A stretch of 32,000 bases of DNA from Telmatocola sphagniphila (lineage in GTDB: Bacteria > Planctomycetota > Planctomycetia > Gemmatales > Gemmataceae), in assembly GCF_018398935.1 (NCBI RefSeq), contig NZ_CP074694.1, positions 2,580,001 through 2,612,000 on the forward strand. Direction: 5' to 3'. Of this stretch, positions 2,827-31,261 are shown one piece after another. Below the pieces are notes generated by a model. That model searched no databases and was not told where the DNA came from. It saw only the letters and a program-made list of their open reading frames with translations. The translations under genes were made by a program, and so were the position numbers. Numbering within the stretch: position 1 is the stretch's first letter; every line of letters starts with the position of its first letter.

Positions 2827-4870
2827 TCAAACGAGTGATACCACCCAGATTCAAACCCGCTGTCGTAAACCTACCCCCAAATTCAACACCCCATTCGAAT
2901 CCACCATAAACTGACCGCTGTTCGACCACGTCGGACTCGTCGAACCCACGCCATTCCCGGTCGGATTGATGTTGATCGTGCCACCACCCGTCGTCGAGCC
3001 TGCCAATAATGTACCCGTGTTCGTGAACGTCCCCGTCGGGTTGATGTTGATCACCGAGCTCGTATTGATCGCCTGAATCTTGCCACCATTTGTCAGATTC
3101 CCCGTACCACTGAAGTTGTAGTTGTTCCCGACTTGACCCGTCGTATTCGCCGACTGCGAGATCAACACATTACTGCCCAGACTTGCATTCGTATTCCCTT
3201 CCACCGCCACATAACTGTTCGAACCCAACGTAATCGAAACATTGTCCAGCACACTGGTCTGACCTATCCCCAAACCCGCCGAAGTACCTATCGTCACACT
3301 CGAACCCGAGGAAAAAGTGGAACCATTCGTCAAACGCACGTAATTGTTCGATCCTGACAAATTCAACGTCCCTGAAATCGCGACGCCACTCAACTGATTG
3401 TTGGAACTCGTCGACGCATTCAGACTTGACCCCCCCGAAGATGTAAACGTACCCCCGGATATCGTCCCGGCATTGAGCGTCAACGATCCCGTCGTTGCCG
3501 TCAACGCCAACGGGCCCCCCACCGTATTGTCCAACGTGCCCGTGATGTTGATCGTACCCCCCGCATTCAAACGAGTGATACCACCCAGATTCAAACCCGC
3601 CGTCGTAAACCTACCCCCAAATTCAACACCCCATTCGAATCCACCATAAACTGACCGCTGTTCGACCACGTCGGACTCGTCGAACCCACGCCATTCCCGG
3701 TCGGATTGATGTTGATCGTGCCACCACCCGTCGTCGAGCCTGCCAATAATGTACCCGTGTTCGTGAACGTCCCCGTCGGGTTGATGTTGATCACCGAGCT
3801 CGTATTGATCGCCTGAATCTTGCCACCATTTGTCAGATTCCCCGTACCACTGAAGTTGTAGTTGTTCCCAACCTGACCCGTTGTACTCGCCGACTGCGAG
3901 ATCAACACATTACTGCCCAGACTCGCATTCGTATTCCCTTCCACCGCCACATAACTGTTCGAACCCAACGTAATCGAAACATTGTCCAGCACACCGGTCT
4001 GACCTATCCCCAAGCCCGCCGAGGAACCTATCGTCACACTCGAACCCGAGGAAAAAGTGGAACCATTCGTCAAACGCACGTAATTGTTCGATCCTGACAA
4101 ATTCAGCGTCCCCGAAATCGCGACACCACTCAACTGATTGTTGGAACTCGTCGACGCATTCAGACTTGACCCCCCCGAAGATGTAAACGTACCCCCGGAT
4201 ATCGTCCCGGCATTGAGCGTCAACGATCCCGTCGTTGCCGTCAACGCCAACGGGCCCCCCACCGTATTGTCCAACGTGCCCGTGATGTTGATCGTACCCC
4301 CCGCATTCAAACGAGTGATACCACCCAGATTCAAACCCGCTGTCGTAAACCTACCCCCCAAATTCAACACCCCATTCGAATCCACCATAAACTGACCGCT
4401 GTTCGACCACGTCGGACTCGTCGAACCCACGCCATTCCCGGTCGGATTGATGTTGATCGTGCCACCACCCCCTACTGAACCCGCCAACAACGTACCTGTG
4501 TTCGTGAACGTACCCGTCGGGTTGATGTTGATCACCGAGCTCGTATTGATCGCCTGAATCTTGCCACCATTTGTCAGATTCCCCGTACCACTGAAGTTGT
4601 AACTGTTCCCGACTTGACCCGTTGTACTCGCCGACTGCGAGATCAACACATTACTGCCCAGACTTGCATTCGTATTCCCTTCCACCGCCACATAACTGTT
4701 CGAACCCAACGTAATCGAAACATTGTCCACCACACTGGTCTGACCTATTCCCAAACCCGCCGAAGAACCTATCGTCACACTCGAACCCGAGGAAAAGGTG
4801 GTACCGTTCACAAGTCGAACATAACTGCTCGCTGTCGATAAATTCAACGCGCCCGAAATCGCAACACCAT
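1500..4870. repeat. intragenic tandem repeat, 741-bp (247-codon) unit, ~4.5 copies
   Basis: The landmark TCAACTGATT recurs at 1911, 2652, 3390 and 4130, with spacings of 741, 738 and 740 bp. The shortfalls equal the 3 and 1 homopolymer deletions. Copies between ~2160 and ~4400 are almost base-identical; the outer copies (1500-1700, 4800-4870) are diverged. The array boundaries are approximate. Confidence 0.9.
2851..3669 (-). CDS. repeat surface protein, middle fragment (module 3)
   Basis: 272-aa ORF. After about 17 out-of-frame residues it reads GGRFTTAGLNLGGITRLNAGGTINITGTLDNTVGGPLALTATTGS..., identical to the neighbouring modules. It ends the same way (NLG|VGLRQRV*) at the G5 tract 2874-2878. 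Confidence 0.6.
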   Translation of the reverse strand: MVEQRSVYGGFEWGVEFGGRFTTAGLNLGGITRLNAGGTINITGTLDNTVGGPLALTATTGSLTLNAGTISGGTFTSSGGSSLNASTSSNNQLSGVAISGTLNLSGSNNYVRLTNGSTFSSGSSVTIGTSAGLGIGQTSVLDNVSITLGSNSYVAVEGNTNASLGSNVLISQSANTTGQVGNNYNFSGTGNLTNGGKIQAINTSSVININPTGTFTNTGTLLAGSTTGGGTININPTGNGVGSTSPTWSNSGQFMVDSNGVLNLGVGLRQRV

Positions 4871-5342
4871 CGAGAGTATTCGATGAACTTGAATTAAATT
4901 GTAATTGCCCCGAACCACTGATAACCCAGGTACCGCCGCGAATTGTTGCCCCGTTCACGGAATAAGTACCGGCGGAAATCGTCGCATTCGTCGTCTGAAA
5001 TACAGAACCGGATGTTTGAGACAGCGTGGCGTAACTGGAACTGAGCGTAAATGAGTTCACCGTGTAACTGTTATCCATCGTCACGGTATAGGCAGTGTTT
5101 CCATTATTCCCATCAAGGTAGACGTTGTAGTTAGTGCCAGCTGGCACGCCATTGTTAGGAACCGCCCCGTTACTCCAGCTGGCCGCGGAGTTCCAGTCAC
5201 CTGTACCAGCGGACCAGTGAGCGTTCACCTGCGCGTTCGCCCGATTTTGCACGAGGAGGCAAATGGCCGCTACAGCGGGATAGGTGAAGCGACTGGCAAA
5301 AAAGCTTGAGTATTTACGAACAGACTTGGACGCTTGAGACAT
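3591..5342 (-). CDS. repeat surface protein, N-terminal fragment (signal peptide, unique N-domain, repeat modules 1-2)
   Basis: 583-aa ORF starting at ATG 5342. It has a signal peptide and then modules ending ...GQFMVDSNGVLNLG. At that point the frame is lost at the G5 tract 3614-3618, giving the out-of-frame tail VGLRRRV*. Confidence 0.8.
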   Translation of the reverse strand: MSQASKSVRKYSSFFASRFTYPAVAAICLLVQNRANAQVNAHWSAGTGDWNSAASWSNGAVPNNGVPAGTNYNVYLDGNNGNTAYTVTMDNSYTVNSFTLSSSYATLSQTSGSVFQTTNATISAGTYSVNGATIRGGTWVISGSGQLQFNSSSSNTLDGVAISGALNLSTASSYVRLVNGTTFSSGSSVTIGSSAGLGIGQTSVVDNVSITLGSNSYVAVEGNTNASLGSNVLISQSASTTGQVGNSYNFSGTGNLTNGGKIQAINTSSVININPTGTFTNTGTLLAGSVGGGGTININPTGNGVGSTSPTWSNSGQFMVDSNGVLNLGGRFTTAGLNLGGITRLNAGGTINITGTLDNTVGGPLALTATTGSLTLNAGTISGGTFTSSGGSSLNASTSSNNQLSGVAISGTLNLSGSNNYVRLTNGSTFSSGSSVTIGSSAGLGIGQTGVLDNVSITLGSNSYVAVEGNTNASLGSNVLISQSASTTGQVGNNYNFSGTGNLTNGGKIQAINTSSVININPTGTFTNTGTLLAGSTTGGGTININPTGNGVGSTSPTWSNSGQFMVDSNGVLNLGVGLRRRV

Positions 5343-7278: not shown

Positions 7279-8157
7279 TTACTTGTTAGCATTTCCCACC
7301 GGCTTGAACATGGTTCGAAAAGCAATCAAACAGGCCGGGTGAAAAATCGTGGCGTGCGTCTCGGACTTGAATTCCTGCGAATGCCAATCGAACCCTTTGG
7401 GGGCAGACTTACGGAGATTCTCTTTGAGCTCTTCTACCAAGGGCGCGAGGGAGGATTCTCCACTATTGGCGAAAAAAAGGTGTTTACCCGAGGGTAGTTT
7501 GGGAAGATATTCTACCCCAGATTTTTTGAGCATCTGTTGATCATTCCACCAAAGGCTGGGATCGAAGGCAATGTAGGTGTCGAACAGGTCCGGCTCCAGG
7601 AAAAGGGTTTCGATAACGAATAAACCCGCCAGCGACTCTCCGACAATCGCTTTTTCCGCAGTTGTTCGATACCGTTTTGACACCTCTGGCATCAGTTCCT
7701 CTCGAAGGAATCTCCGAAATTCCGCGGAGCCTCCAACATGGGGTGCAATCGTCTTATCCTTGGCATTCGCTGTCGGCCCCGTGAGATCCCTTCTCCGTTC
7801 CGTATTTTGGATGCCGACGAGAATGAAGGGACGCATCGTACCGTTGCCCGATCCGACTTGCACCAAACCCGCCACATGCAGAAAATCCTCCGCAAGTCCG
7901 CCATCGGGCATGTAAAGAACCGGCAGACGCATGTCTGTCGATTCAGAATAGCCGGGAGGAAAATAGACGTTGATGACTCGTTTTTCACTAAGAATCTGTG
8001 AGTTAATTGAAAATGTATCGCCTATTACCAGCCCGCCGGATTTAAATTCACTGACCAAAGCTTCGTTGGTCTGGATCGCCGTCCGGTAAGCAAAGCCCAT
8101 ACCGAAGCCAACGCCCCAAAAGAGCGCTATCCAGGACGCGATTCTCAAATTTCTCAT
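7279..8157 (-). CDS. alpha/beta hydrolase, putative esterase family (enterochelin-esterase-like)
   Basis: Nucleophile elbow GESLAG (GxSxG), N-terminal signal/TM (IASWIALFWGVGFGMGFA), and the pattern ...VYFPPGY...LPVLYMPDG... typical of the 'putative esterase' family. The tracked start at 8163 is TTG; ATG 8157 is preferred. Confidence 0.85.
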   Translation of the reverse strand: MRNLRIASWIALFWGVGFGMGFAYRTAIQTNEALVSEFKSGGLVIGDTFSINSQILSEKRVINVYFPPGYSESTDMRLPVLYMPDGGLAEDFLHVAGLVQVGSGNGTMRPFILVGIQNTERRRDLTGPTANAKDKTIAPHVGGSAEFRRFLREELMPEVSKRYRTTAEKAIVGESLAGLFVIETLFLEPDLFDTYIAFDPSLWWNDQQMLKKSGVEYLPKLPSGKHLFFANSGESSLAPLVEELKENLRKSAPKGFDWHSQEFKSETHATIFHPACLIAFRTMFKPVGNANK

Positions 8158-8251
8158 TCCCAATCTCTCCGTCCTACGAAACTATTACTCTTTTTCAGGA
8201 CAATTTATCGATAGGGAAACGGAGCTGACGAGCGATGGTTGCAAAAATTCT

Positions 8252-10543
8252 TTACGGGGAATTCAGTTCGGCCACCACCATGGAATGAATCATCAACTTG
8301 GGCACGATGACCGATACTCCCTCAGCTGTTTCCAGCTTCTCTAACTCGATTCCCTCGGGCTCCAGCCGAATCTTGCCGAGTTTGTAATCTTTCCGGAAGC
8401 GAACCTCAATATCGTGGATAGGTAGCACCTCTTCTCTTAGCGGCACATCGTCATTCGGGAAGGCTTTACCCCCGGTCGTGTTGACATCGTTGTAAAGGTG
8501 AACGATCAGCCGATTCTGCATCGGATGGGTCTGCCGCATCACTGTGGACTGAACGCAAAGGGGAGCTTTCACCACCACCGGCTGAGCAATTTGCCCAGCA
8601 GCCCAGCGAATCGCATTTCCCAAAAGCAAACGTTGATAGGGATAGGAATAAAGATAGTATCCCGCGTCGATTCCCGCCGGGAAGTAGACCACTCTCCCCT
8701 TCCCATATTCGCGGCTGATAATTGCAGGGAACGGCTCGGGCCGGGGATCGTCTTTGACTTGTAAAGTTGCCAGAATTTTCGTACCCGAGTGCGGCTTCAC
8801 CCGCACGGCCGGGCCTTTGAAGGTCACCGGTTCGTTATCCAGATATTGCGTCAGCTGCCCCGACATCAGCCAGGAATCCAGAATTCGAAAATCGAAGATA
8901 TTTTTGCGTTTTTCCCAATAATCCGACCCGATGCCTTGAGCGAAATTGACATCCAGCTCAACCTTGGGGGCTTTAGATGTTGGAAGCCCCAGATAATCCA
9001 CTCCCAGTAAATTACCCAGAGCAAACCTGGCTCGCGGATCGCCATATTCATCGAAGAGGGAAGTATCCAGACTCGCGACGAGCCCGCCCCCCTGCTTCAC
9101 ATATTCGTCCAAAGCCTTCACCTGCTTGTCATCCAAACTCGCCGTATTGGGCAGTATCACCACGGCGTATTTCTTCAATTCTTCCAGAGTGAGATTCCAG
9201 TCGTTAACGACTGTTGTCGGCAGATGCTCTTCCAGCGTGGCCCGAAAGGTTCCAAAGACACTCGACATATAGCGTTCTTCCACCCGGCCTGCCTGCCGTC
9301 CGTAGAAAGTCCGAGTGTTGTCGCTCATGATGAGGGCCGCCCAGGGCTCCGGCGATTTATGAGTCAGCCAGGGCTTGCGCTTCTGTACCTCATCGAGACA
9401 ACGATCCACTTCAGCCCGCAATCGCTTCGGCTGGCCCACCGCGATGCTCGGCCCAGCGCCGTGCGTCAAAGCCAGCATCATGCGTCGTTCAATTTCATGT
9501 CCCGGAAAACTATCTTTCCCGTACGGATTGCCATGACTCATCAAATAGGGTTCGCTGAAGGCCACGCGATGATTGGTCACGGCCCAGGCATAAGCGTTGG
9601 CAAAGGCCGGCACCACAGTGAGGCCGCGATTGCTTTCATCGGCCCAGAATTCCTGATCGGGAGCGTCGAATAGCAAATTCATGCGCGTCGACATGTTGCG
9701 CGGCAGACTGAGAAAATGGCCGTAGCGACCGGCGTTTGTCGTCCAGGTGACTAAAGCCACCTCGGGCTTAATGGACTTCAGTCTTTGTTGGGCTTTCGCG
9801 ACAACCGCTTCGAGTTTGCGATCGACCCAGTGTTGGTACCGACGAAAGTCCGGATCGTTCAGATCGGGCTTCGGGGGCAGTGGCTTACCGGTATCTGCGA
9901 GGTAGTTTTTACGACAGTGTTCGCAGTAGCAGAAGCCGCCGTGATGCAGACCATCGAAGCTGAAAGCATCGACTTCGGGATGTTTCTCCAAAATCTCGGC
10001 GAGAACATCGATAAAGAAATCGCCGTACGGCCCGAGCAGGCAAAGCATGCCGCCATAGGGGGCCGCTTTCATATCGACCTGAGGAATGGTCCTCGTATCG
10101 GAAGTGATTCGCCGCCAGTCGGGGTGTTTTTCATAGACTTCGCCCTGCAAGGTCGGCGGATAGACCCCGAGAATGCGGATTCCCAGCTTCTTATACTCCG
10201 CAATCTCATTTTGGATGCGGTCCAGCGGCACGTGAGGACTGCGTTTGAGAAGCAATTTGCTGTCGTAATAAGGATAAAAAGGATCGACAAAATTCATCTC
10301 GCTAATCGTGACGCCGTGACGGACGGCAGCCGTTCGACCGGTGGTGTCCATGCCAGAGAGGGTGTAGCCGACGCCGGTAGTCCCTTGCACCCAATCGGGA
10401 ATTTTAATCGGTCGAAAAGGAGTTTTGTCGAAGGGTTGATGGGGCAATGGCGATTCAAAATAGTTGTTCTCCGGTTTCTCTGCAAGAAGGGGGAGGCCCA
10501 GCACCAGAGCCAGGAGGAAAGTCAGAGGAATTTTGAAACCCAT
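8252..10543 (-). CDS. secreted GH42-like glycoside hydrolase (TIM-barrel part with CxCxxC motif plus beta-galactosidase-trimerisation-like domain)
   Basis: 763-aa ORF with ATG 10543 and GGAG upstream. It has a signal peptide (MGFKIPLTFLLALVLGLPLLA). FSFDGLHHGGFCYCEHCRKNY resembles the Zn-Cys cluster region of GH42. AVVILPNTASLDDKQVKALDEYVKQGGGLVAS resembles the GATase-like trimerisation domain. The specific substrate is unknown. Confidence 0.75.
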   Translation of the reverse strand: MGFKIPLTFLLALVLGLPLLAEKPENNYFESPLPHQPFDKTPFRPIKIPDWVQGTTGVGYTLSGMDTTGRTAAVRHGVTISEMNFVDPFYPYYDSKLLLKRSPHVPLDRIQNEIAEYKKLGIRILGVYPPTLQGEVYEKHPDWRRITSDTRTIPQVDMKAAPYGGMLCLLGPYGDFFIDVLAEILEKHPEVDAFSFDGLHHGGFCYCEHCRKNYLADTGKPLPPKPDLNDPDFRRYQHWVDRKLEAVVAKAQQRLKSIKPEVALVTWTTNAGRYGHFLSLPRNMSTRMNLLFDAPDQEFWADESNRGLTVVPAFANAYAWAVTNHRVAFSEPYLMSHGNPYGKDSFPGHEIERRMMLALTHGAGPSIAVGQPKRLRAEVDRCLDEVQKRKPWLTHKSPEPWAALIMSDNTRTFYGRQAGRVEERYMSSVFGTFRATLEEHLPTTVVNDWNLTLEELKKYAVVILPNTASLDDKQVKALDEYVKQGGGLVASLDTSLFDEYGDPRARFALGNLLGVDYLGLPTSKAPKVELDVNFAQGIGSDYWEKRKNIFDFRILDSWLMSGQLTQYLDNEPVTFKGPAVRVKPHSGTKILATLQVKDDPRPEPFPAIISREYGKGRVVYFPAGIDAGYYLYSYPYQRLLLGNAIRWAAGQIAQPVVVKAPLCVQSTVMRQTHPMQNRLIVHLYNDVNTTGGKAFPNDDVPLREEVLPIHDIEVRFRKDYKLGKIRLEPEGIELEKLETAEGVSVIVPKLMIHSMVVAELNSP

Positions 10544-10640
10544 AGAGGCTCCGGAGTGCGATTTCTACGGACGATATCCCCTGATACTAGCATTAATGCA
10601 AAGGAACTCCTGCAAATTAATTTCGCTTGGTAGAACTTTC

Positions 10641-11180
10641 TCATAGCCCCTTCAGCCCATCGATACTCGAATGGTTTTTCTGAGCTTGATACGCTCGAAT
10701 CCCTTCCTCCCCTTTGGTTTTCGCCCAGTCGGTCAACTGCGTCCGTTCGTCGATATATTCAAAACGCGGCACACCGAAGCCACAGGAATCGGCTATCCTT
10801 TCGATATCGAGAACTATAACTGCCCGCGCACTGGGATAATTGGGAAACCCGGCAATTAGCGCGATCCCTTCCGCACTCGATGGGAGAACTGCCCGGCCCC
10901 GGCCATAGAGCCTCAAAATTCGCGGACGGCCTTCGAACGCACAGAACATGATTGTCAGACGCCCGTTTTCCTGAAGATGTGCGATAGTCTCCACGCCGCT
11001 GCCGGTGAGATCGAGATAGGCCACCTGGGTAGGCCCCAGCACGCGAAAACTATCGAGCCCCTTCGGCGACAAATTGACATGCCCTTCCGCTGATAACGGG
11101 GCCGTCGCGACGAAAAACAGATGTTGCTTCGCAATGAAGCTATGCAGATCGTCGTCAATCGAAGTAAAAAGTTTCCCCAT
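10641..11180 (-). CDS. pyridoxamine 5'-phosphate oxidase family (FMN-binding split-barrel) protein
   Basis: The sequence ...FIAKQHLFFVATAPLSAEGHVNLSPKG...VAYLDLTGSGVETIAHLQENGRLTIMFCAFEGRPRILRLYGRG... is typical of PNPOx-like proteins of ~180 aa. The tracked start 11195 is GTG; ATG 11180 (MGKLF...) is preferred. Confidence 0.85.
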   Translation of the reverse strand: MGKLFTSIDDDLHSFIAKQHLFFVATAPLSAEGHVNLSPKGLDSFRVLGPTQVAYLDLTGSGVETIAHLQENGRLTIMFCAFEGRPRILRLYGRGRAVLPSSAEGIALIAGFPNYPSARAVIVLDIERIADSCGFGVPRFEYIDERTQLTDWAKTKGEEGIRAYQAQKNHSSIDGLKGL

Positions 11181-11330
11181 GTCGCATTCCTTCACGGAAA
11201 CATCGAAAAATCCCCAGGGTTAAAATAGCGGCCGCGATCCTTTTCGGCTTGGTAGCAGGAATACTGCTCGGCTATGATCAAGTGATTGAGCGTGGATAAG
11301 TTCACGATTTTTTTTTGGCAGTAATCACCC

Positions 11331-11534
11331 ATGAACTTGCCGACTTCTCCTCAGCCCTCGCATCTAACGGTCATTGATCTGATCTTTAACTACGCCCTAT
11401 TCTGCGGTGTCGGTTACCTGATCTGGGGTAAGTATGGAGCACTCGGGGGTTTCGGCATCATATCAGCCCGTTACGTACAACTTATCTGGATAGCCAGCCT
11501 GCCGGAGAATTCGCGGTCGTTAGATAGGCCGTGA
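11331..11534 (+). CDS. possible small membrane protein (hypothetical)
   Basis: 67-aa ORF with an ATG start and one hydrophobic stretch (LIFNYALFCGVGYLIWGKYGALGGFGII). There is no other support. Confidence 0.3.
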   Translation: MNLPTSPQPSHLTVIDLIFNYALFCGVGYLIWGKYGALGGFGIISARYVQLIWIASLPENSRSLDRP

Positions 11535-12278: not shown

Positions 12279-13142
12279 ATGATTCTCTTTTCAGGCGCAA
12301 CCGGGTTAGTGGGTGGGGCTGTTGTGCAGGAATTGCTTCAACTCAAGACGAAAAACGTTCGTGCTTTATGCCGAAACAGCAAAGATGCCTCCAAAATTCC
12401 CACTGGCGCCGAAGTGGTTTACGGAGATTTTTCAGATCTTGAAAGTTTGGAAAAGGCTCTTTCCGGAATCGATTCCGCCTATCTGGTCTGTGCCGCTATA
12501 CCCGATTTAGTTGAGCTGGAATCCAATTTCCTTCAAGCTTGCAAGAAGCTAGGCACCAGACATGTCGTAATTCAATCGGCACTGGGTGCAGCGGATTTTC
12601 CCAAATCATTTCCCTCCTGGCATCGCCAAGTCGAGGATATAGCCAGAACCTTGAAAGTACCTCATACGATTCTTCGGCCCAATGGTTTCTTGCAAAATAT
12701 TGGCACTTACTTCGCTCCGAGTATTCGGACCCAGGATTGTTTCTACGGCATGATCGGGGAATCCCGAATCAGTCTGGTCGATATTCGCGATATTGCTCTC
12801 GCCGCGGCCCTGTTGTTATCTCTTGGTTCCCCACGGAATCAGATTTTCGAACTGTTCGGACCAGAAGCACTCTCCAACCAGGAGATTGCTCAACGGATTT
12901 CGAATGTGACCGGCCGGAACGTGACTTACATAAACCTGAGCGAAGAACAAATCCTTCAAGGCATGGTGGGAGCCGGGATCCCCGGATGGCGTGCCCGGGC
13001 AATTGCCGAACTCGACGAATATTACCTTTCGGGTAAAGGCGCGGGATCGGACGATGTTCTTCAAAAACTGATCGGCCGATCACCACGGACTCTGGATGCT
13101 TACCTCGCTGAAAATGTCTCCGTTTTCGATCAACCCAAATGA
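12279..13142 (+). CDS. NmrA-like / atypical SDR NAD(P)H-binding oxidoreductase
   Basis: N-terminal Rossmann motif MILFSGATGLVGGAVVQELL. It is 287 aa long and has an AAAGGAAAGG ribosome-binding-like site upstream of ATG 12279. It is divergent from the HxlR regulator, a classic pairing. Confidence 0.9.
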   Translation: MILFSGATGLVGGAVVQELLQLKTKNVRALCRNSKDASKIPTGAEVVYGDFSDLESLEKALSGIDSAYLVCAAIPDLVELESNFLQACKKLGTRHVVIQSALGAADFPKSFPSWHRQVEDIARTLKVPHTILRPNGFLQNIGTYFAPSIRTQDCFYGMIGESRISLVDIRDIALAAALLLSLGSPRNQIFELFGPEALSNQEIAQRISNVTGRNVTYINLSEEQILQGMVGAGIPGWRARAIAELDEYYLSGKGAGSDDVLQKLIGRSPRTLDAYLAENVSVFDQPK

Positions 13143-13151
13143 GGCACTCCC

Positions 13152-13547
13152 ATGAATTCGATAACCGGGTTTACGCTCGAGGAAATGAAGCAATTCGTTC
13201 GGGATCATTTCGAGCAATTCGTTAATCAGAAAAATATCGCCATTGGCAAAGTCAACTTCGCTGCGGATTTTGTGGATCATGGAGCGGGTGTTCCAGTCGG
13301 TTTGCCGCCCGGTCCGGAAGGGGCGATGCAATATGTCGCCGGCGCGCTCCGAAAATTCCCCGATATGAGAGTGACCATTGAAGATCTTATCACCGAAGCC
13401 GATAAAGTGGTTGTCCGCAACCGCTGGACGGCCACCGACCCAAACACTAATCAGAAATTCGCTTTTCGAGGAATTGTCATCTGGCGGATTTCCAACCGAC
13501 AACTGGCCGAGCGCTGGGCCTTTCTCGAACCAGCGAAAGCGGTTTAA
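13152..13547 (+). CDS. SnoaL-like ester cyclase (NTF2-fold) protein
   Basis: 131 aa. ...FAADFVDHGAG...GPEGAMQYVAGALRKFPDMRVTIEDLITEADKVVVRNRWTATD...FRGIVIWRISNRQLAERWAFLE matches the ester-cyclase/SnoaL pattern. It starts 10 nt after the NmrA-like gene, so the two are probably co-transcribed. Confidence 0.85.
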   Translation: MNSITGFTLEEMKQFVRDHFEQFVNQKNIAIGKVNFAADFVDHGAGVPVGLPPGPEGAMQYVAGALRKFPDMRVTIEDLITEADKVVVRNRWTATDPNTNQKFAFRGIVIWRISNRQLAERWAFLEPAKAV

Positions 13548-13743
13548 GTTGAACGCAAAAGAAGAATCCAATCTCACTGACATTGCCTTCTAGAGAACCC
13601 CGGCCCCGCTTTCGCTAAAAAAACGTCTCTATTCCCATTGAAGAAGCAGATCGCCGACTAAAACCCGCACAATTCGATTGCTGAATTCCACTTTTATTTA
13701 AATAAGTGAGCGCGCCCAGCCCTGATTTTGCACATTACTCTAT

Positions 13744-16700
13744 ATGAAAAGGTCGCTACCCTCTGATCCCGAAGTACGCAGTCGTAAAAATCCGACTTCC
13801 AGTACACTTCAGCAAGCCATTCAAAAATTGGCTCCGGTCACGGATGCCAAACTCTTGGGTCGTTTTGTTGAAGAGGCGGACGCCACCGCTTTCGAAGAAA
13901 TCGTTCGTCGTTACGGCCCGATGGTCATGGGTGTTGCACGGCGCGCTCGCCTACAAAATCAAGATCAAGAAGATGTCTTTCAAGCGACTTTCTGGCTTTT
14001 GTCGCGCGATGGTCGCAAGATTCGCGAACGGGATCGACTGGCCGGTTGGCTGTATCAGGTGGCCCGCCGGATGTCCAAAAAATGCATACGATCCTACAAC
14101 AATAACCTGCTCGAAGCGGTTGCGGATCCGAGGACCGAAAATGATCCCGCTATTTCTGCTGGTTGGCGGGAATTCGCAGATGTGCTCGATGCGGAAATTC
14201 TGCGCTTGCCCACCGAACTCCGTTCGCCTCTGGTGATTTGCCTGCTGGAAGGAGCTACTCAAGAGCAGGCGGCCCAACGCTTGGGATGTTCTTATACCAC
14301 GCTCCGTCGTCGTTTCGATCGCGGCCGAAGTCTGCTTCGACTTCGCTTGGAAAAACGGGGGGTCGGCCCTTTGGCCATTGCCGTGCTGGCCCTTCCGCCA
14401 TCCCTGGCGCTTGGATCTGTGCCCCCGAGTCTTCTGCAATCCGTCTTTTTATTTGCATCGAAATCAACAAGCATCGCCCAAATCCCCGCTTCTGTCACGG
14501 CCCTCGTCTCCGTTAAGGTGATCAGCATGAAAACCGCTATTTTTGCAAGCCTATTCGCTCTAGGTATCAGCCTCTTTGCTTACTCTGTGACACCGGCCAG
14601 TTCTGCAGCCGCAAATGCATCTCCTGATACTGCGATCGAGTCGAACGAATCCGATCATAATCAGGAGGCGAAAAAAGAGAATCCCAAGCCCGGAACAAGT
14701 GAAATGACCTTCAAAGTTCTGGATGAATCTGGCAAGCCTCTCGCGGGAGCGGAACTCGAATTCAGCGTCTGGGCGGGTGAAGGAGAAAAAATTCCGAAAT
14801 GTAAAACGAATAGTGATGGCGTGGCTGTGATTCGAAGGCCAAACGAAATACAAACTCTTCGGGTCTGGTGCTCTGCTACTGGGTATGCAACGCTGTTTAG
14901 AGGCTGGGAAACGGGGACCACGGATCAAAATAACCCGCTGCCAGAAACATTCACATTTCCGATGAAAAAAGGAATTTCTATAGGTGGGAGAGTAGTTGAT
15001 CCAAAGGAAAACGGAATCGCTAATGTTCGAATAGAAGCGATCTGCGAGAAATATGCACCTCACAAATTTCCGAATAATACTCATTACGGCAATTCCTTAT
15101 CTTTAGTGAATAATGGCGTGCAGACAGACAAGGACGGCCATTGGAGCATCGATACTGTTCCTGAACCAGTGGAGGAAATCAGTCTTCGATTCCATAGTGA
15201 GGATTTCGCTTCGGATCTCTCCCTACCTTTCAGCATAATTCAAAAAGATCAAAATATCACGTTGAGTCAACTCAAGTCGAAAACCGCAGTGGCAAAGTTG
15301 AATTACGGATCTCGATTGCACGGCTTGATCACCGATCCCCAGGGTAAGCCGATCCCAAAAGCAGTGGTCATATTTCATGAAAACCCCTTTATGAACACGG
15401 GAACTCAGGTCGTTGCCGACGAAAATGGCAAATACAAAATGCCGGCTCTTCGGGAAGGAACGGAATCAATTACAGTTGTGGCCCCAGGATATTCTCCGCT
15501 ACTTAAAAACGTAAAAATGTTGCGCGGTCTGCAAGAGCAGAATTTCCAACTGGAAGTCGGTCATCCCCTGCGCTTGAAGGTAATCGATGAGGCAGGCCAT
15601 CCGGTCAAAGTTCACTTTGTACTCCAAGAATGGCGATCAAGAAGATCCCTTTATACAAGTCGTCTTCCAGACATGATTGACTTGCAAATCCCACGCTTTT
15701 CAAATGCGGAGGGAATATACGAATGGCTATGGGCACCTGCGGACGAAGTCAAATTCGAAATCATTGCGGAGAAGGAAATATTTCAAAGGCAAAGGATCGC
15801 CGTAAAAGCGGATGAGCCGCTGAAAACCATAGTCATGAAAAAACCGGCGTTTTTATCTGGAAATGTAAAGGATGCAGTAACTGGTAAACCGATTCCTAAA
15901 TTTCGGGTTTATCAGATAATCGAATTTTCTTCCGGATGGCTGTATTTGGAAAGAAATCAAAATTTTGTAACAGGAGAAAACGGCCGGTTCAAAATTCCGC
16001 TACAGAGGCCTGTAGACGACTTAAGAGTATTAATTGAAGCAGAGGGTTACCGGAGCACGGTCAGCAAACATTCCCTAATAAAAAATCATATACGCGAACA
16101 GGACTTCGCTTTAGAACCAGCCCTCTCAATTAAAGGGCGCATACTGGATGCGGAGGGCCTGCCTCTTAAGGAAGCGATGGTATCTGTAGCAAATAGCTTC
16201 CAAGGATTCGAATTTCAACGAACAAAAAACAATTCCACCTACAAAACAGATGAGCGGGGATACTTCCAACTTCCAGCCCAACCGGAAGACTACACTTTGA
16301 TCGTTTCGCATGCGTCGGGATTCAAAAGATTGGATTGTCGCAAAAGCGAAAGTAATCTTAGAGATATCACCGTGGAAAAATGGGTGACGATTCGAGGAAA
16401 AGTTTGGCAGGACGGCAAAACAATCCCGAATCAATGGATCGAACTCTTTCCAATACCTGGGGGAGAGTATGACAAGCACCACATCAGACTAAATCAGGGC
16501 ACTCAAACCAATGAAAAGGGGGAATTCGAGCTGACTCAGGTGCCCGCGGAACCGCTTTGTATTGAGACCAGACTCAATGTTTGGCTGCAATCAGTGTTAT
16601 CGAGCAGCGAGACTCGTCCCTTGAATCCTGTTCCTGGCGAAAAAATTTATCTGGACTTGAATAAGAACGGAGTCAAATTAACTGGTAATATCCATCTTTC

Positions 16701-17490
16701 AGGCGATCTCTCCAAGCTTTCGGATTTAGAGTATTCTCGATTAACCCTTTATAGACAGACTCCGGACATCAAGCTCCCTAAACCTTGGAATCTCCATCCC
16801 ATAGATTTTTCGAGTAAAATTGCCAACCATCAATTGGAATCCAATAGTAGCTTCGTACACAACGTCTTCGTGCTGAAGCCCAAATTGAATGGTCAGTATC
16901 AAATACACGGCGTGCCACCCGGAGATTATCTGTTTTCTATTCGAGTCAACGAGAAACCCGATGGCAGCTGCTTGGATGCGCCTCTCATTGAAAAACTCGT
17001 TCCCATCACCATCTCCCCCGAGGATGTGACCAAGGGCGAACTGCGACTGCCCGATATCGAAATCAAAGTACCCCAACGACTAGTACCGGGAACAGCCGTT
17101 CCGACAGCGACGTTGAGGGATTCGGACGGGAAGGAGATTTCTCTTAAGCAACACGAGGGCAAGTACCTTCTCCTGCATTGCTGGGCCGGATGGTGCACCG
17201 TGTGCTCCCGCTCCTATCCCGATTTGCAGAAGCTGGCTAGTGATTTTCCCAAGGAGAAGCTGGCCATCGTGGGACTCAATCTCGACACTACTGTTCGAGA
17301 AGGTGTGGAGAGTACCAGCAAAAACAAATTCACCTGGCCGCAGGCTTATCTGGCTGCGGAGGGTGGTGAAAAAGTCATCCAAGATTGGCAAATCACTTCT
17401 ATTCCGCAGTTTCTGTTAGTATCTCCGGAAGGAAAACTCGTTCTTCGCACTTGGTCAATCGAGGAAGTCCTTAAGGTATTGAAGCAGTAG
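13744..17490 (+). CDS. membrane-tethered ECF-type sigma-70 factor fused to a large extracytoplasmic region (multiple carboxypeptidase-regulatory-like beta-sandwich domains) and a C-terminal TlpA-like thioredoxin domain
   Basis: The sigma70 region 2 has EDVFQATFWLL...WLYQVARRMSKK. Region 4 has LPTELRSPLVICLLEGATQEQAAQRLGCSYTTLRRRFDRGRSLLRLRL (nt ~13860-14360). A hydrophobic helix KTAIFASLFALGISLFAYSV lies at nt 14527-14589. At least 5 segments resemble G(R/K)(V/I)xDxxGxP...DxxGxFxxP. The C-terminal redoxin fold has WAGWCTVC (CxxC at 17194-17205) and ...IPQFLLVSPEGKL. There is no in-frame stop anywhere in the 1248 codons. Confidence 0.85.
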   Translation: MKRSLPSDPEVRSRKNPTSSTLQQAIQKLAPVTDAKLLGRFVEEADATAFEEIVRRYGPMVMGVARRARLQNQDQEDVFQATFWLLSRDGRKIRERDRLAGWLYQVARRMSKKCIRSYNNNLLEAVADPRTENDPAISAGWREFADVLDAEILRLPTELRSPLVICLLEGATQEQAAQRLGCSYTTLRRRFDRGRSLLRLRLEKRGVGPLAIAVLALPPSLALGSVPPSLLQSVFLFASKSTSIAQIPASVTALVSVKVISMKTAIFASLFALGISLFAYSVTPASSAAANASPDTAIESNESDHNQEAKKENPKPGTSEMTFKVLDESGKPLAGAELEFSVWAGEGEKIPKCKTNSDGVAVIRRPNEIQTLRVWCSATGYATLFRGWETGTTDQNNPLPETFTFPMKKGISIGGRVVDPKENGIANVRIEAICEKYAPHKFPNNTHYGNSLSLVNNGVQTDKDGHWSIDTVPEPVEEISLRFHSEDFASDLSLPFSIIQKDQNITLSQLKSKTAVAKLNYGSRLHGLITDPQGKPIPKAVVIFHENPFMNTGTQVVADENGKYKMPALREGTESITVVAPGYSPLLKNVKMLRGLQEQNFQLEVGHPLRLKVIDEAGHPVKVHFVLQEWRSRRSLYTSRLPDMIDLQIPRFSNAEGIYEWLWAPADEVKFEIIAEKEIFQRQRIAVKADEPLKTIVMKKPAFLSGNVKDAVTGKPIPKFRVYQIIEFSSGWLYLERNQNFVTGENGRFKIPLQRPVDDLRVLIEAEGYRSTVSKHSLIKNHIREQDFALEPALSIKGRILDAEGLPLKEAMVSVANSFQGFEFQRTKNNSTYKTDERGYFQLPAQPEDYTLIVSHASGFKRLDCRKSESNLRDITVEKWVTIRGKVWQDGKTIPNQWIELFPIPGGEYDKHHIRLNQGTQTNEKGEFELTQVPAEPLCIETRLNVWLQSVLSSSETRPLNPVPGEKIYLDLNKNGVKLTGNIHLSGDLSKLSDLEYSRLTLYRQTPDIKLPKPWNLHPIDFSSKIANHQLESNSSFVHNVFVLKPKLNGQYQIHGVPPGDYLFSIRVNEKPDGSCLDAPLIEKLVPITISPEDVTKGELRLPDIEIKVPQRLVPGTAVPTATLRDSDGKEISLKQHEGKYLLLHCWAGWCTVCSRSYPDLQKLASDFPKEKLAIVGLNLDTTVREGVESTSKNKFTWPQAYLAAEGGEKVIQDWQITSIPQFLLVSPEGKLVLRTWSIEEVLKVLKQ

Positions 17491-17580: not shown

Positions 17581-17759
17581 TTCTTCGTCTCTACCTGCAC
17601 CAGTTAAAGCAATCCTTAAGTTCCCGACGAAATATTCTTACATCTTGCCCAACATCAATCCGCTTTAGACTCAAACCCTCACGCGGCCCTAGACAGTTCA
17701 AGTGGAATGTGTTAAATTTTGCCTATTACTCTCCCCATTTCTTTTATTGGCATTCATTT

Positions 17760-18794
17760 ATGAGAAATTTTCCTCGAAAGCGAAAAGCATTCACACTGAT
17801 CGAACTATTGGTGGTGATCGCGATTATAGCCATCCTGATTGGTCTATTGCTCCCGGCCGTGCAAAAAGTCCGCGAAGCGGCTGCCCGAATGAAATGCAGT
17901 AACAATCTCAAACAACTGGCCCTGGCCTGTCACAACTACGCCTCCGCCAACGGCATCCTCCCCTATGGCCGAAAGTACGATATTTGGGATAGCTACACCT
18001 GGATCGAAAATATTCTACCCTACATTGAACAAAACAACATCTACGTCAACTTTTGGACACTCACTCAAACCGGTTACCCCGGCGGGTACCCAAACTATCC
18101 CTGTCCACTCGCTTCCTGGGGTCCCGATAGCCGTTTAATCACCGCGCGTACGGGCAACGTCGCGACCTTCCACTGCCCGAGCGATCCCGGTTACCCGTGG
18201 GATGAACTGGGCTCGGACTGGTTTTCGCGAATCCGAGGGAACTACGTCGGTTGCACCGGCACCGGCGACATGTACGGCACGGCCACCGATAGCACCACCG
18301 GTCCTTGGGGACTCGGCGTGTTCGGCGTCACGAACGGACAGAGTTTCGATACTAACCAGTCGCTGGGTATTTCCCTCATCGGTATCATTGATGGAACCTC
18401 GAACACCCTCATGATGTCGGAAGATCTGACCCCTTCCGTTCAGGGTTACGGTGGCCCGATCGGCGATATTCTAACCGGGAATATGGGCGGTGCTCTTTTT
18501 TCCGCTAGCCTGACCCCGAATTCCAGTGCCCCCGATCAACCTTATGGCCCCTGCCCGCAAGATCAGGGAGACACCCAGTATAATTCTCCCTGCAGCAGCG
18601 TAACCGGGGCTGGATTCGGCTGGGGCGTTCAAGGAGCAGCCGGCGCTCAGACCGCGGCCCGCAGCAAACACACCGGCGGAGTCAACGCGGCCATGGCCGA
18701 CGGCTCTGTTCGCTTCGTGGCGAATACCATCGACCTCTACAGCTGGCGTTCCATGGGTACTCGCAGCGGCGGCGAAGTTTTCAATCTGCCTTAA
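17760..18794 (+). CDS. DUF1559 / H-X9-DG protein with N-terminal prepilin-type cleavage/methylation domain (type II pseudopilin-like)
   Basis: KAFTLIELLVVIAIIAILIGLLLPAVQKVREAAARMKCSNNLKQLALACHNY is the canonical planctomycete DUF1559 N-terminus. The C-terminal HTGGVNAAMADG fits H-X9-DG exactly. ATG 17760 (MRNFPRKRKAFTLIELL) is preferred over the tracked start at 17709. Confidence 0.9.
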   Translation: MRNFPRKRKAFTLIELLVVIAIIAILIGLLLPAVQKVREAAARMKCSNNLKQLALACHNYASANGILPYGRKYDIWDSYTWIENILPYIEQNNIYVNFWTLTQTGYPGGYPNYPCPLASWGPDSRLITARTGNVATFHCPSDPGYPWDELGSDWFSRIRGNYVGCTGTGDMYGTATDSTTGPWGLGVFGVTNGQSFDTNQSLGISLIGIIDGTSNTLMMSEDLTPSVQGYGGPIGDILTGNMGGALFSASLTPNSSAPDQPYGPCPQDQGDTQYNSPCSSVTGAGFGWGVQGAAGAQTAARSKHTGGVNAAMADGSVRFVANTIDLYSWRSMGTRSGGEVFNLP

Positions 18795-18797
18795 AGG

Positions 18798-19253
18798 ATG
18801 TGGCACTTCATGATTCGCAAGAGTTTCTGGAAATTCCTCGGACTCCTGCTGCTCCCGATCCTTGTAATCGGGTGCGGCGGTTCGGACACGAGAATTTCCG
18901 GCACTGTCAGCTATGACGGGGAACCGATTTCCAAAGGGCAGATCGTATTCATGCCTGCCGATGGTAAAGGGACTCCCGAAGGCGGTGAAATTGTGGACGG
19001 GAAGTATACGGTGAAGGCTATTTCACCCGGCAAGAAAATCGTGCAGATCTCCGCAGCCAAGGAATCGGCCGCCCCGGTTCACAACCTGGAAGATATGGTC
19101 GGCAAAGGGAAGAACACGACGAAAATTTCAACGGCCCCCGTTATCCCCGCCCATGCGGAAGGCAATAATGCCACAATCGAGATTCTTCCCGGCAACAACA
19201 CCCAGAGTTTCGATTTGAAAAAACCGACCAAACCCGCGGGAAAGGCGAGGTAG
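18798..19253 (+). CDS. lipoprotein with carboxypeptidase-regulatory-like beta-sandwich domain (common DUF1559 partner)
   Basis: Signal peptide plus lipobox LPILVIG|CGG, followed by ISGTVSYDGEPISKGQIVFMPADGKG...GKYTV. It starts 4 nt after the DUF1559 stop; an alternative start is ATG 18810. Confidence 0.8.
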   Translation: MWHFMIRKSFWKFLGLLLLPILVIGCGGSDTRISGTVSYDGEPISKGQIVFMPADGKGTPEGGEIVDGKYTVKAISPGKKIVQISAAKESAAPVHNLEDMVGKGKNTTKISTAPVIPAHAEGNNATIEILPGNNTQSFDLKKPTKPAGKAR

Positions 19254-19839: not shown

Positions 19840-20352
19840 CTAGGTGTAGCATTCAGAGAAATACTTCTGGATCTGGTTGACGAAGCCGCGAATCTCCGCA
19901 ACGGTCGGCCCTAATTTTTTCGCAGCCCAATTCACGTCCAGGAGTATTCTCGTCCAGAGCGTAGTTAGACTCTGAATTCCATAACTCCGACGTAGCACTA
20001 CCCGAATCTTGGTATTGAGACCTTCCACCGGGCCGCTGCTTTTGCGTTCCTCGAAGTAGGCTAAGATCCCCTCCCAGTTATTCTTGAGCATCGTGATGAA
20101 CGGCTCCCAATCCATCTCGGTCTCGCGGGCCTGGACGATCCAATCTTCCAACAGTCGCGAGGCTTCGGCTCGGTTGGGGGCACTATCGAAGATCTTGGTC
20201 GCCTCCCAACGCAGATGGTAGATCGTTCCCAACGAAGGCACCTTCTCGAACAAATCCTCGAGGGCCTGGACCTGCTCCGGATTCAAATCCTCGGGACGAC
20301 GCCGGAAGTCGTGCATCTGAGAACGCAGCTTCTTGCGGGCTTCCCCGCTCAA
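19840..20352 (-). CDS. ISL3 transposase, C-terminal part
   Basis: The -1 frame continues as ...KKNYRAYKRSLSGEARKKLRSQMHDFRRRPEDLNPEQ...NWEGILAYFEERKSSGPVEGLNTKIRVVLRRSYGIQSLTTLWTRILLDVN. The tracked start is only a TTG inside this frame. The stop codon lies inside the left inverted repeat. Confidence 0.8.
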   Translation of the reverse strand: MSGEARKKLRSQMHDFRRRPEDLNPEQVQALEDLFEKVPSLGTIYHLRWEATKIFDSAPNRAEASRLLEDWIVQARETEMDWEPFITMLKNNWEGILAYFEERKSSGPVEGLNTKIRVVLRRSYGIQSLTTLWTRILLDVNWAAKKLGPTVAEIRGFVNQIQKYFSECYT

Positions 20353-21155
20353 ACTTCGCTTGTAGGCTCGATAGTTTTTTTTCGCAGATCGTCCGCCACC
20401 TCACCCAATTTCTTGGCGACGTGAAAGCGATCTATCACCGACTGGCTGTTGGGTAAATGCACGCCGCAAGCCTTCAAATACGCCGCGCTCATGTCCGTAT
20501 GATGCCAACGCACCGCCGACCGTTGCTGGGCCGACAAACGCTCCAAACACGCTCGCCCCGCTGCTTCGTCGCGACCCTTGGACAGAGCCAGAATCTCCGG
20601 ACGCTCCCCATTCGTCAGGTCCGTCAATATTGTCGCATATCCCTTATGCCCCTTACGCAGGCTGATCTCATCCAGACCCAAACGCTCGATCTTCCGCTGG
20701 GGATCGATCTGCTTCGCCTTGGCGTCCTCTATCCGGTTCTTGACGATTCGCTCCACCGTCTCCGCGGCAATCCCCAAACGCACCGCCACGTCTTCGGCTG
20801 TGCTCCCGATCAGACTGACCAGCACCTGCTCCTCGAAGCGAAACGTATATTTCACATCCCGACGCTTGAACGGCGGCAACAGCGATTGACGGTGACCGCA
20901 CGACGGGCAGCGGTGATACACCTCCTGGTACACGAAAAAGCTCGGCTTACCCCACAAATCCAGATCGCGGATGCTCAGAAACTTGTTCTTCTCCACCAAT
21001 TGAAGCCGAGACTCTCGCTGGCAAGTCTCGCAACAAAGATTGTCGGGCAACTCCCAACTCACGTGAAAGGCGTGGCCACCGTCGACGCGTTCGTATTCGC
21101 CAACGCTCACTCCGGCAGGGACGTCCATGTCTATGGCAATGGTAGTCGTCGTCAT
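20349..21155 (-). CDS. ISL3 transposase, N-terminal part (zinc-finger/HTH + first part of DDE domain)
   Basis: CCETCQRES...HRCPSCGHRQ zinc finger, followed by ...HTDMSAAYLKACGVHLPNSQSVIDRFHVAKKLGEVADDLRKK. The frame is lost in the A8 run (T8 at 20375-20382 on the + strand). ATG 21155 is preferred over the tracked TTG 21197. Confidence 0.8.
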   Translation of the reverse strand: MTTTTIAIDMDVPAGVSVGEYERVDGGHAFHVSWELPDNLCCETCQRESRLQLVEKNKFLSIRDLDLWGKPSFFVYQEVYHRCPSCGHRQSLLPPFKRRDVKYTFRFEEQVLVSLIGSTAEDVAVRLGIAAETVERIVKNRIEDAKAKQIDPQRKIERLGLDEISLRKGHKGYATILTDLTNGERPEILALSKGRDEAAGRACLERLSAQQRSAVRWHHTDMSAAYLKACGVHLPNSQSVIDRFHVAKKLGEVADDLRKKTIEPTSEV

Positions 21156-21198
21156 CGGCTCTTCCGTGATCCAGGTAAAGGGTACTCTAAATTGCAAT

Positions 21199-26732: not shown

Positions 26733-26773
26733 TTCTCTTCGTTATATATTTGCTGCGTGATCAGCCGCTTCTC

Positions 26774-31143: not shown

Positions 31144-31261
31144 GAAAAATATTACCTTCGCTCCCGGCCGAGGTTTCAGAAAAACTAAATTCCGCGGAAC
31201 GAAACCGGAAGAGATTTTCAATGGTAGTATACTTTCAGACAACTCTGGGGAGGTGTTCCCG

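Follow-up and report, generated by a model that had tools for sequence, protein, structure and literature searches.

A planctomycete ECF sigma factor that continues through a membrane helix into a beta-sandwich stalk and a TlpA-like thioredoxin domain

Extracytoplasmic function (ECF) sigma factors of planctomycetes carry long and diverse C-terminal extensions, which have been proposed to arise by duplication of the sigma2-sigma4 part and capture of neighboring coding sequence (Pinto et al. 2020, PMC7671368). Described examples include a WD40-type group, ECF57 (PMC8999054), and the WD40-bearing ECFs of Gemmataceae (PMC8567305). Elsewhere, IutY from Pseudomonas putida, a sigma/anti-sigma hybrid of group ECF243, is activated through proteolysis by Prc and RseP, and proteolytic release has been suggested for SCO4117 from Streptomyces coelicolor, a member of ECF52 (PMC8999054). 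Here we analyze a stretch of 32,000 nucleotides (nt) from Telmatocola sphagniphila (contig NZ_CP074694.1, positions 2,580,001 to 2,612,000), called the window below, in which one gene encodes an ECF sigma factor continuous with a transmembrane (TM) helix, an array of beta-sandwich domains and a C-terminal TlpA-like thioredoxin domain with a CxxC active site.

This fusion protein belongs to the planctomycete class of ECFs with variable, membrane-spanning C-terminal extensions. The reading that we favor, and to which we give a probability of roughly 55%, is that of a membrane-tethered sigma factor for which the periplasmic module would act as signal input and which would be released by regulated proteolysis.

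Sigma factor and thioredoxin domain in one polypeptide

Domains were accepted when they scored above the curated cut-offs of Pfam and NCBIfam, and weaker matches were viewed up to an E value of 1. The structure of the protein was modeled with AlphaFold2 (AF2) in two overlapping parts, residues 1-319 and residues 291-1248, built from 11 and 30 sequences, respectively. Residue numbers are those of the 1248-residue fusion protein, and nucleotide positions those of the whole window. The gene and its parts are the following.

13744..17490, plus strand: complete open reading frame (ORF) of the fusion, comprising ECF sigma factor, linker, TM helix, beta-sandwich array and TlpA-like thioredoxin (ORF scan, Pfam, NCBIfam and a second assembly)
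13900..14094, plus strand: sigma-70 region 2, residues 53-117 (Sigma70_r2, PF04542, 30.4 bits against a cut-off of 24; helical in the AF2 model, with a predicted local distance difference test score (pLDDT) of ~90; matches to ECF-sigma folds)
14185..14334, plus strand: sigma-70 region 4.2, residues 148-197 (Sigma70_r4_2, PF08281, 26.4 bits against 25.7; AF2 model; fold matches)
14359..14517, plus strand: conserved juxtamembrane linker, predicted to be cytoplasmic, residues 206-258 (motif G..VPxxL...SxxVxxL..M)
14518..14598, plus strand: single TM helix, predicted N-in/C-out, residues 259-285 (hydropathy, charge counts in the family, AF2 helix 249-281)
14599..14694, plus strand: low-complexity, predicted periplasmic spacer, residues 286-317, separating the TM helix from the first beta-sandwich and marking where sigma chassis and portable module join (pLDDT below 50)
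14695..17070, plus strand: about eight CarboxypepD_reg/prealbumin-like beta-sandwich domains, residues 318-1109 (PF13620, all-beta AF2 model, multi-Ig fold matches)
17089..17487, plus strand: TlpA/ResA-like thioredoxin-fold domain, residues 1116-1248 (AhpC-TSA, matches to PDB sequences, fold, motifs)

The ORF starts with ATG, is uninterrupted by stops and encodes 1248 amino acids (aa). The protein is also recorded in NCBI/UniRef and is called identically on the independent Logan assembly SRR14506984. Its N-terminal part is an ECF (group 4) sigma-70 factor, with sigma2 and sigma4 and without sigma3 and sigma1.1. In addition to the two Pfam domains listed, the NCBIfam sigma70-ECF model TIGR02937 scores 56.3 bits over residues 49-201 (cut-off 42.9), and Pfam yielded no match to a region 3 or region 1 domain in the fusion protein. 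The NCBIfam equivalogs SigZ, SigM, SigE and Sig-70_gvs1 score far under their cut-offs. In the outer part, CarboxypepD_reg matches six stretches at residues ~320-900 with 151.7 bits (cut-off 32.3), and AhpC-TSA matches residues 1116-1233 with 55.3 bits (cut-off 26, E = 8e-15), while Redoxin and Thioredoxin_8 pass as well. The layout put forward in a preliminary description of this DNA, namely a single polypeptide with an ECF sigma factor, a TM helix, some 800 aa of beta-sandwich repeats and a TlpA-like CxxC domain, is thus upheld by domain scores that all lie above their cut-offs and by the identical ORF in the second assembly.

The AF2 model of residues 291-1248 (pLDDT 84.9) consists of a disordered spacer and about eight beta-sandwich domains followed by a thioredoxin fold. 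As for the stalk formed by the beta-sandwiches, a fold search returned generic multi-Ig proteins only, with very low global TM-scores. The thioredoxin domain superposes on the structures of ResA, TlpA-like and Etrx proteins with TM-scores of 0.80-0.86 and a root-mean-square deviation (rmsd) of ~2 Å. Likewise, the C-terminal 190 aa match the sequences of solved TlpA/ResA/Etrx-type oxidoreductases, including 2lrn, ResA and TlpA, with a best E value of 7e-15. The active site, WAGWCTVC, corresponds to residues 1147-1154, and its CTVC (C1151-C1154) falls exactly on nt 17194-17205, where it had been placed before. The cis-Pro sits in TSIPQF, and both WAGWCTVC and SIPQ align with the motifs of the family. 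The domain thus has the sequence and modeled fold of TlpA/ResA/CcmG-like thiol-disulfide oxidoreductases and looks catalytically competent. Searched on their own, the last 299 aa matched two small thioredoxin proteins only.

Strongly hydrophobic 19-residue windows occur only at residues 205-231 and 259-285, the second of which contains the helix at nt 14527-14589 pointed out earlier. In 24 sigma-type relatives, the 15 residues preceding this helix contain a total of 61 K/R and 17 D/E, and the 15 residues following it 36 K/R and 37 D/E. Since an excess of K/R precedes the helix across the family, the positive-inside rule predicts an N-in/C-out topology, which is well supported because homologs of the outer module bear cleavable-looking signal peptides or come after the fourth TM segment of BlaR1-type M56 domains. 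TlpA-type domains are extracytoplasmic. All this favors the location of the thioredoxin domain outside the cytoplasm that had been proposed.

We consider it highly improbable that the fusion is an artifact in which a missed frameshift or stop separates two genes, or that a second TM segment at residues 206-224 leaves stalk and thioredoxin in the cytoplasm. The first idea could draw on one relative from an Isosphaeraceae metagenome-assembled genome (MAG; locus L021, 7923-11398), in which the sigma-to-module ORF is broken within sigma4 by a frameshift (ORFs 7923-8528 and 8417-11398), due either to a MAG sequencing error or to decay of the copy. Here, however, no stop interrupts the ORF, the two assemblies agree on it exactly, and the fusion recurs in 15 independent clusters (see below). 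As for the second idea, residues 206-224 are indeed uncharged in this protein, with a hydropathy of 1.7, but they contain three prolines and are modeled as two short helices; they carry charges in most relatives and therefore form no conserved TM helix. The location of the homologous modules, behind signal peptides or BlaR1-type TM segments, and the extracytoplasmic nature of TlpA-type domains speak against it as well.

In the AF2 model of residues 1-319 (pLDDT 75), sigma2 spans residues 34-125 and sigma4 residues 139-204, the linker forms two short helices (residues 208-215 and 228-239, pLDDT 67-80), and a long helix at residues 249-281 corresponds to the TM span. The best PDB matches of this model are the complexes SigW/RsiW, sigmaE/RseA, AlgU/MucA and CnrH/CnrY, with an rmsd of 9-12 Å, compared with ~28 Å for holoenzyme-bound sigma factors. 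That the model lies closer to compact, anti-sigma-bound ECFs is a weak hint that the modeled state may be closed. Sigma factors whose extensions are unrelated can be aligned over the linker motif and the TM helix, which argues that this helix is part of the sigma module. There is no Cys/His motif in residues 206-258, and the linker is a candidate for a minimal auto-inhibitory or tethering element.

One outer module on three chassis

To place the fusion among its relatives, residues 49-1248 were compared by phmmer with 1.84 billion cluster representatives, which gave 2304 matches at E ≤ 1e-30. The best 150 of these were sorted by chassis using local phmmer probes, as follows.

ECF sigma N terminus: 24 among the best 150, 15 of them with a thioredoxin domain (the query included); most of the remainder look truncated
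BlaR1 peptidase M56 N terminus: 62, of which 41 have the thioredoxin domain (PF05569 at E values of 1e-30 to 1e-33; HExxH in 61)
module on its own, preceded by a signal or anchor: 61, of which 45 have the thioredoxin domain
other chassis: 4, of which 3 have the thioredoxin domain

Some of the module-alone entries could be truncated gene calls, and several were checked to be complete genes. Homology to the stand-alone forms and to most M56 forms begins at residue ~320 of the query, at the first beta-sandwich. Since this boundary coincides in all three chassis, the outer module is a discrete unit. Gemmataceae and Isosphaeraceae, along with other Planctomycetota, account for most of the relatives found by a profile scan, and a few belong to Verrucomicrobiota; a scan of GTDB genomes with the single protein found no close relative, although the profile scan did retrieve relatives. 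Some of the M56-type relatives are giants (P0016, P0018, P0031 and P0033, 2389-4092 aa) with two or three stalk modules in tandem, and some giant proteins of this type carry an internal thioredoxin domain. The query itself has no Pfam match to an M56 domain.

The complete sigma-to-thioredoxin architecture is found in at least 14 further clusters at 50% identity beyond the query, mostly from Planctomycetota. The survey of such fusions suggested at the outset showed that the architecture is not confined to this protein, since at least 15 clusters share it with the query included. The closest relative among the best 150, P0015 (locus L082), is 46% identical and co-linear over residues 20-1248, with a sigma core that is 67% identical. 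Judged by its sequence, P0015 is an ortholog, from another metagenome. Because the whole fusion is co-linear in the two proteins and the sigma core is the best conserved part, selection appears to act on the sigma part.

BlaI and BlaR1 are canonically encoded side by side, blaI preceding blaR1, and the outer C-terminal domain of BlaR1 is its sensor. At the three M56-type loci inspected, a BlaI/Penicillinase_R gene lies immediately upstream, overlapping or no more than 40 nt away. This sharing of the module with a BlaR1/BlaI chassis gives indirect support to a signaling role for it. No anti-sigma gene follows the fusion gene, as had been stated, and neither an anti-sigma gene nor a shared neighbor was found at five sigma-type loci, those of the query and four homologs. 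The stand-alone forms had no evident linked regulator at the loci inspected. Two candidates for a separate sigma partner were rejected. The sigma gene in the vicinity of P0019 (locus L087), the nearest of the stand-alone forms, is unrelated to the sigma factor of the query and so cannot be a split-off partner, and the translation of the ORF upstream of P0023 shows no resemblance to the sigma module.

The sigma module, for its part, is also found with other extensions. The N-terminal 300 aa of the query (sigma factor, linker and TM helix) have relatives of 33-44% identity whose C-terminal parts are unrelated. A profile search yielded over 100 proteins from Gemmataceae and Isosphaeraceae, ~930-1050 aa long, that combine the sigma factor with CarboxypepD_reg arrays lacking thioredoxin, as well as sigma-WD40, sigma-Prc-peptidase and sigma-HlyD fusions. 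Most database relatives of the sigma module bear either the CarboxypepD_reg array without thioredoxin or WD40. The names given by the source databases are generic, mostly "sigma-70 family," the Prc and HlyD fusions being named after the fused domain. In P0272, P0279 and P0012, the fusion partners of sigma modules from the same clade are Prc/S41 peptidase with PDZ, HlyD-like membrane-fusion and DUF1559 domains; the Prc fusion is of note because IutY has Prc as its site-1 protease. Compared with the query, the sigma cores of the remaining sigma-thioredoxin proteins are 32-43% identical, and those of sigma factors with other extensions 35-51%.

A neighbor-joining tree of the shared module, a simple distance tree of 92 sequences and 899 columns, shows sigma, M56 and stand-alone forms intermixed. 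Each of the seven sigma-type groups is nearer to a non-sigma module than to the other sigma-type groups in 77-100% of 200 column bootstraps. By these sequence comparisons, chassis were exchanged repeatedly and sigma fusions arose several times. Since the fusions are recurrent and the module stands alone about as often as it sits on a signaling chassis, it is not specifically a regulator of sigma factors. GC content at third codon positions (GC3) shows no sharp break at the sigma/module junction, where one was looked for along the gene. GC3 is 0.43-0.56 in the NmrA, SnoaL and fusion genes (window 12279-17490) and 0.58-0.66 in most other genes of the window, and this stretch could be an acquired or weakly expressed block.

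These data raise the possibility, which we think has a real but minority chance of being correct, that the outer module is an enzyme first, that is, a stalked periplasmic TlpA-like reductase or isomerase to which a sigma2-sigma4 cassette was joined by accident and without tuned coupling. The sigma domain would then be permanently sequestered, weakly active or decaying. The 61 stand-alone forms among the best 150, which lack an obviously linked regulator and include several complete genes with signal peptides, suggest as much, being as common as the signaling fusions. So do the nearness of the sigma-type modules to non-sigma ones in the bootstraps, the independent shuffling of sigma core and extension, and the lack of a conserved neighborhood at the sigma-type loci. 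Polyphyly and shuffling fit the "fortuitous insertion" origin proposed by Pinto et al. for planctomycete extensions (PMC7671368), in which case a tuned sensor is not necessarily implied. However, an accidental and decaying sigma cassette fits less well with a fusion that is co-linear throughout in the query and P0015, with a sigma core better kept than the rest, with sigma motifs that all exceed curated thresholds, and with the persistence of this type of fusion in at least 15 clusters. Moreover, the module recurs on the BlaR1/BlaI chassis, where by paradigm the C-terminal domain is the sensor.

Proposed control of the sigma factor and surroundings of the gene

In the signaling reading that we prefer, membrane tethering would keep the sigma domain from RNA polymerase, and the conserved linker of ~55 aa might pack on sigma2/sigma4 like a minimal anti-sigma element. 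Release would take place by regulated proteolysis, with a first cut in the periplasm and a second, by a site-2 protease, within the TM helix, as in IutY, and its trigger would be a changed state of the periplasmic module. The least certain step is the input, for which the likeliest candidates are the redox state of the CxxC domain, its engagement with a substrate, or a ligand that binds to the stalk. The preliminary description had suggested that such a device replaces a separate anti-sigma factor. This holds for the absence of a neighboring anti-sigma gene; the protein has no recognizable anti-sigma domain either, and the parts given here to tethering and linker are our proposal.

Redox sensing by the CxxC domain is plausible. 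WxxWCxxC and the cis-Pro are retained in ~88% of the aligned thioredoxin domains, in all three chassis classes, which argues for genuine thiol-disulfide chemistry. About a dozen members (~12%) keep the fold and lack both cysteines, including the sigma-type P0017, which reads WKSISSTS at the active site. Thiol chemistry is therefore not always required, and the redox sensing through the CxxC that had been proposed earlier stays a candidate. A broader version, which we find rather doubtful, would make stalk and TlpA-like domain a portable periplasmic sensor of thiol/redox state (or of oxidized proteins), mounted on an ECF sigma factor, on BlaR1/BlaI or free. The redox state of the CxxC or a mixed disulfide would then gate proteolytic release of the sigma factor, and the same gene might also supply the sensor or enzyme in free form from a conserved internal start at Met262. 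If true, this would be the first envelope thioredoxin-fold domain to serve as the input of transcription-factor release.

Several points weigh against the proteolytic signaling scheme. No anti-sigma domain (ZAS, RskA or FecR) was detected between sigma4 and the TM helix with Pfam and NCBIfam at E values up to 1. The topology was derived from hydropathy and charge counts rather than from a dedicated predictor, and the uncharged residues 206-224 have the hydropathy given above. Sigma fusions are polyphyletic, with sigma cores no closer among sigma-thioredoxin proteins than to sigma factors with other extensions. The 61 stand-alone relatives are secreted or anchored forms, and some thioredoxin domains do without cysteines.

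A further reading, unlikely in our view and compatible with proteolytic signaling, is that an internal start at Met262 yields a free, signal-anchored module of 987 aa beside the full-length protein. A Shine-Dalgarno (SD)-like element, GGTGATC-NGC-ATG-AAA, at this codon (14515-14532) is identical in the ortholog (L082, around 1773) at 46% protein identity. A juxtamembrane Met with basic residues directly after it, ahead of the TM helix, is conserved across the planctomycete sigma-TM family, and an N terminus starting from Met262 resembles a signal anchor. Yet the SD-like bases double as codons of a conserved V-I-x-M-K, K/R codons are inherently purine-rich, and many genes in the window have no obvious SD.

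Ahead of the fusion gene lies one further element.

13704..13738, plus strand: bipartite motif AAGTGAGC-N20-ACATTACT, with its end 4 nt upstream of the ATG; a putative promoter or other regulatory site

The same motif, with the same spacing and position, precedes the ortholog P0015 (L082, 957-991). The form common to the two genes is AAGTGAGC-N20-AC(A/G)TTACT, ending 3-4 nt before the start codon. One possibility is an autoregulated promoter that gives rise to a leaderless mRNA, another a regulatory site of some other kind. No further copies were found in the window or at four other loci of the family. We considered a promoter motif shared by five sigma-type genes and rejected it since only query and ortholog match, and no regulon can be proposed. 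A scan for consensus promoters and terminators gave results at chance level, and Rfam has no match in the window.

The next genes had been described as encoding a DUF1559 pseudopilin-like protein and its lipoprotein partner. The first is confirmed as a DUF1559/N_methyl protein (17709-18794). The supposed partner is a 151-aa ORF (18798-19253) without a Pfam match, the N terminus of which reads ...LVIGCGG. Extracytoplasmic oxidoreductases of the TlpA type are reduced by electron transporters such as CcdA or DsbD, and there is no CcdA or DsbD gene inside the window. Some 2.4 kb beyond the end of the fusion gene, an ISL3-family transposase (19840-21197, minus strand) is broken into two ORFs that overlap (19840-20352 and 20349-21197). 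The break probably marks a frameshifted pseudogene or an error in the assembly. A noncoding tandem array occupies 26771-28084, between ABC-F and M28 peptidase genes. Its 294-bp unit, present in ~4.5 copies with 92% matches, opens with the hairpin-like TTGAAAATGCTCTGCATTTTCAA; GC skew here is strongly negative, and Rfam has no match to the array. Four large ORFs of 728, 272, 583 and 479 aa, at 640-5342 (minus strand) and 29911-31350 (minus strand), have no Pfam match at E ≤ 1e-5. GC skew is strong (-0.26 to -0.29) in the stretch that holds the first three, and AT skew is +0.36 in the stretch around the 479-aa ORF.

Comparison with known systems

To our knowledge, none of the hundreds of extension-bearing planctomycete ECF sigma factors has been studied experimentally. 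The present family is tractable because the CxxC in its outer domain can be mutated, oxidized and trapped, because the module is also wired to the well-understood BlaR1/BlaI switch, and because natural cysteine-less and stand-alone variants are available for comparison. If the state of the CxxC controls sigma release, envelope thiol homeostasis would be linked directly to transcription within one polypeptide, and sensor modules would be exchanged between ECF and BlaR1 chassis. If it does not, extensions can be captured enzymes, which would favor the "fortuitous insertion" view.

Cysteine chemistry is coupled to ECF sigma activity in RsrA-sigmaR, in RsiW, which has a ZAS domain, and in Caulobacter NrsF-sigmaF, through periplasmic cysteines. 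RsrA, RsiW and NrsF are, however, separate anti-sigma proteins, and their sensing cysteines belong to a zinc site or to a short loop rather than to a thioredoxin-fold domain. The thioredoxin fold, the WCxxC, the cis-Pro loop, the membrane anchoring and the predicted outward orientation are what the domain described here shares with TlpA, ResA, CcmG and Etrx. The known members of that group are small (140-220 aa) and have a simple anchor, whereas this domain sits on a stalk of ~800 aa and a sigma factor. Its CTVC dipeptide is also unusual, most relatives having GPC or APC.

In the case of BlaR1/MecR1 with BlaI/MecI, relatives of the query carry the same outer module after the fourth TM segment of M56, downstream of BlaI. 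On both the BlaR1 and the sigma chassis, the outer C-terminal domain faces a transcription switch driven by proteolysis, which for the sigma factor is proposed. In contrast to the penicillin-binding outer domain of BlaR1/MecR1, that of the query consists of a beta-sandwich stalk and a thioredoxin domain, and there is no M56. Like the query, IutY and SCO4117 are single polypeptides in which an N-terminal ECF sigma factor is followed by a membrane span and by a C-terminal part outside the cytoplasm. They contain FecR-like or zinc-finger anti-sigma domains, none of which is detectable in the query, and their outer domains, which differ from that of the query, serve TonB-receptor signaling and carbohydrate binding. 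Lacking a recognizable anti-sigma domain, the query is not placed among the IutY/ECF52 hybrids.

Full-text literature searches returned no description of a sigma or anti-sigma factor that bears a thioredoxin-fold domain, nor of BlaR1-type proteins with this outer module, and the word "thioredoxin" has no occurrence in the main text of two key ECF surveys. Both the thioredoxin-terminated variant and the sharing of its module with the BlaR1/BlaI chassis thus appear undescribed. ECFs with diverse C-terminal extensions were already known as a class (PMC7671368), and the novelty first claimed, that of a thiol-disulfide oxidoreductase domain at the end of a sigma factor, stands. It is these planctomycete ECFs that the query resembles most closely in its layout. 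They too have a conserved linker and a single TM helix, sigma cores 35-51% identical to that of the query, no adjoining anti-sigma gene, no conserved context and independently swapped extensions. The query differs from those described in that its extension terminates in a TlpA-like CxxC thioredoxin.

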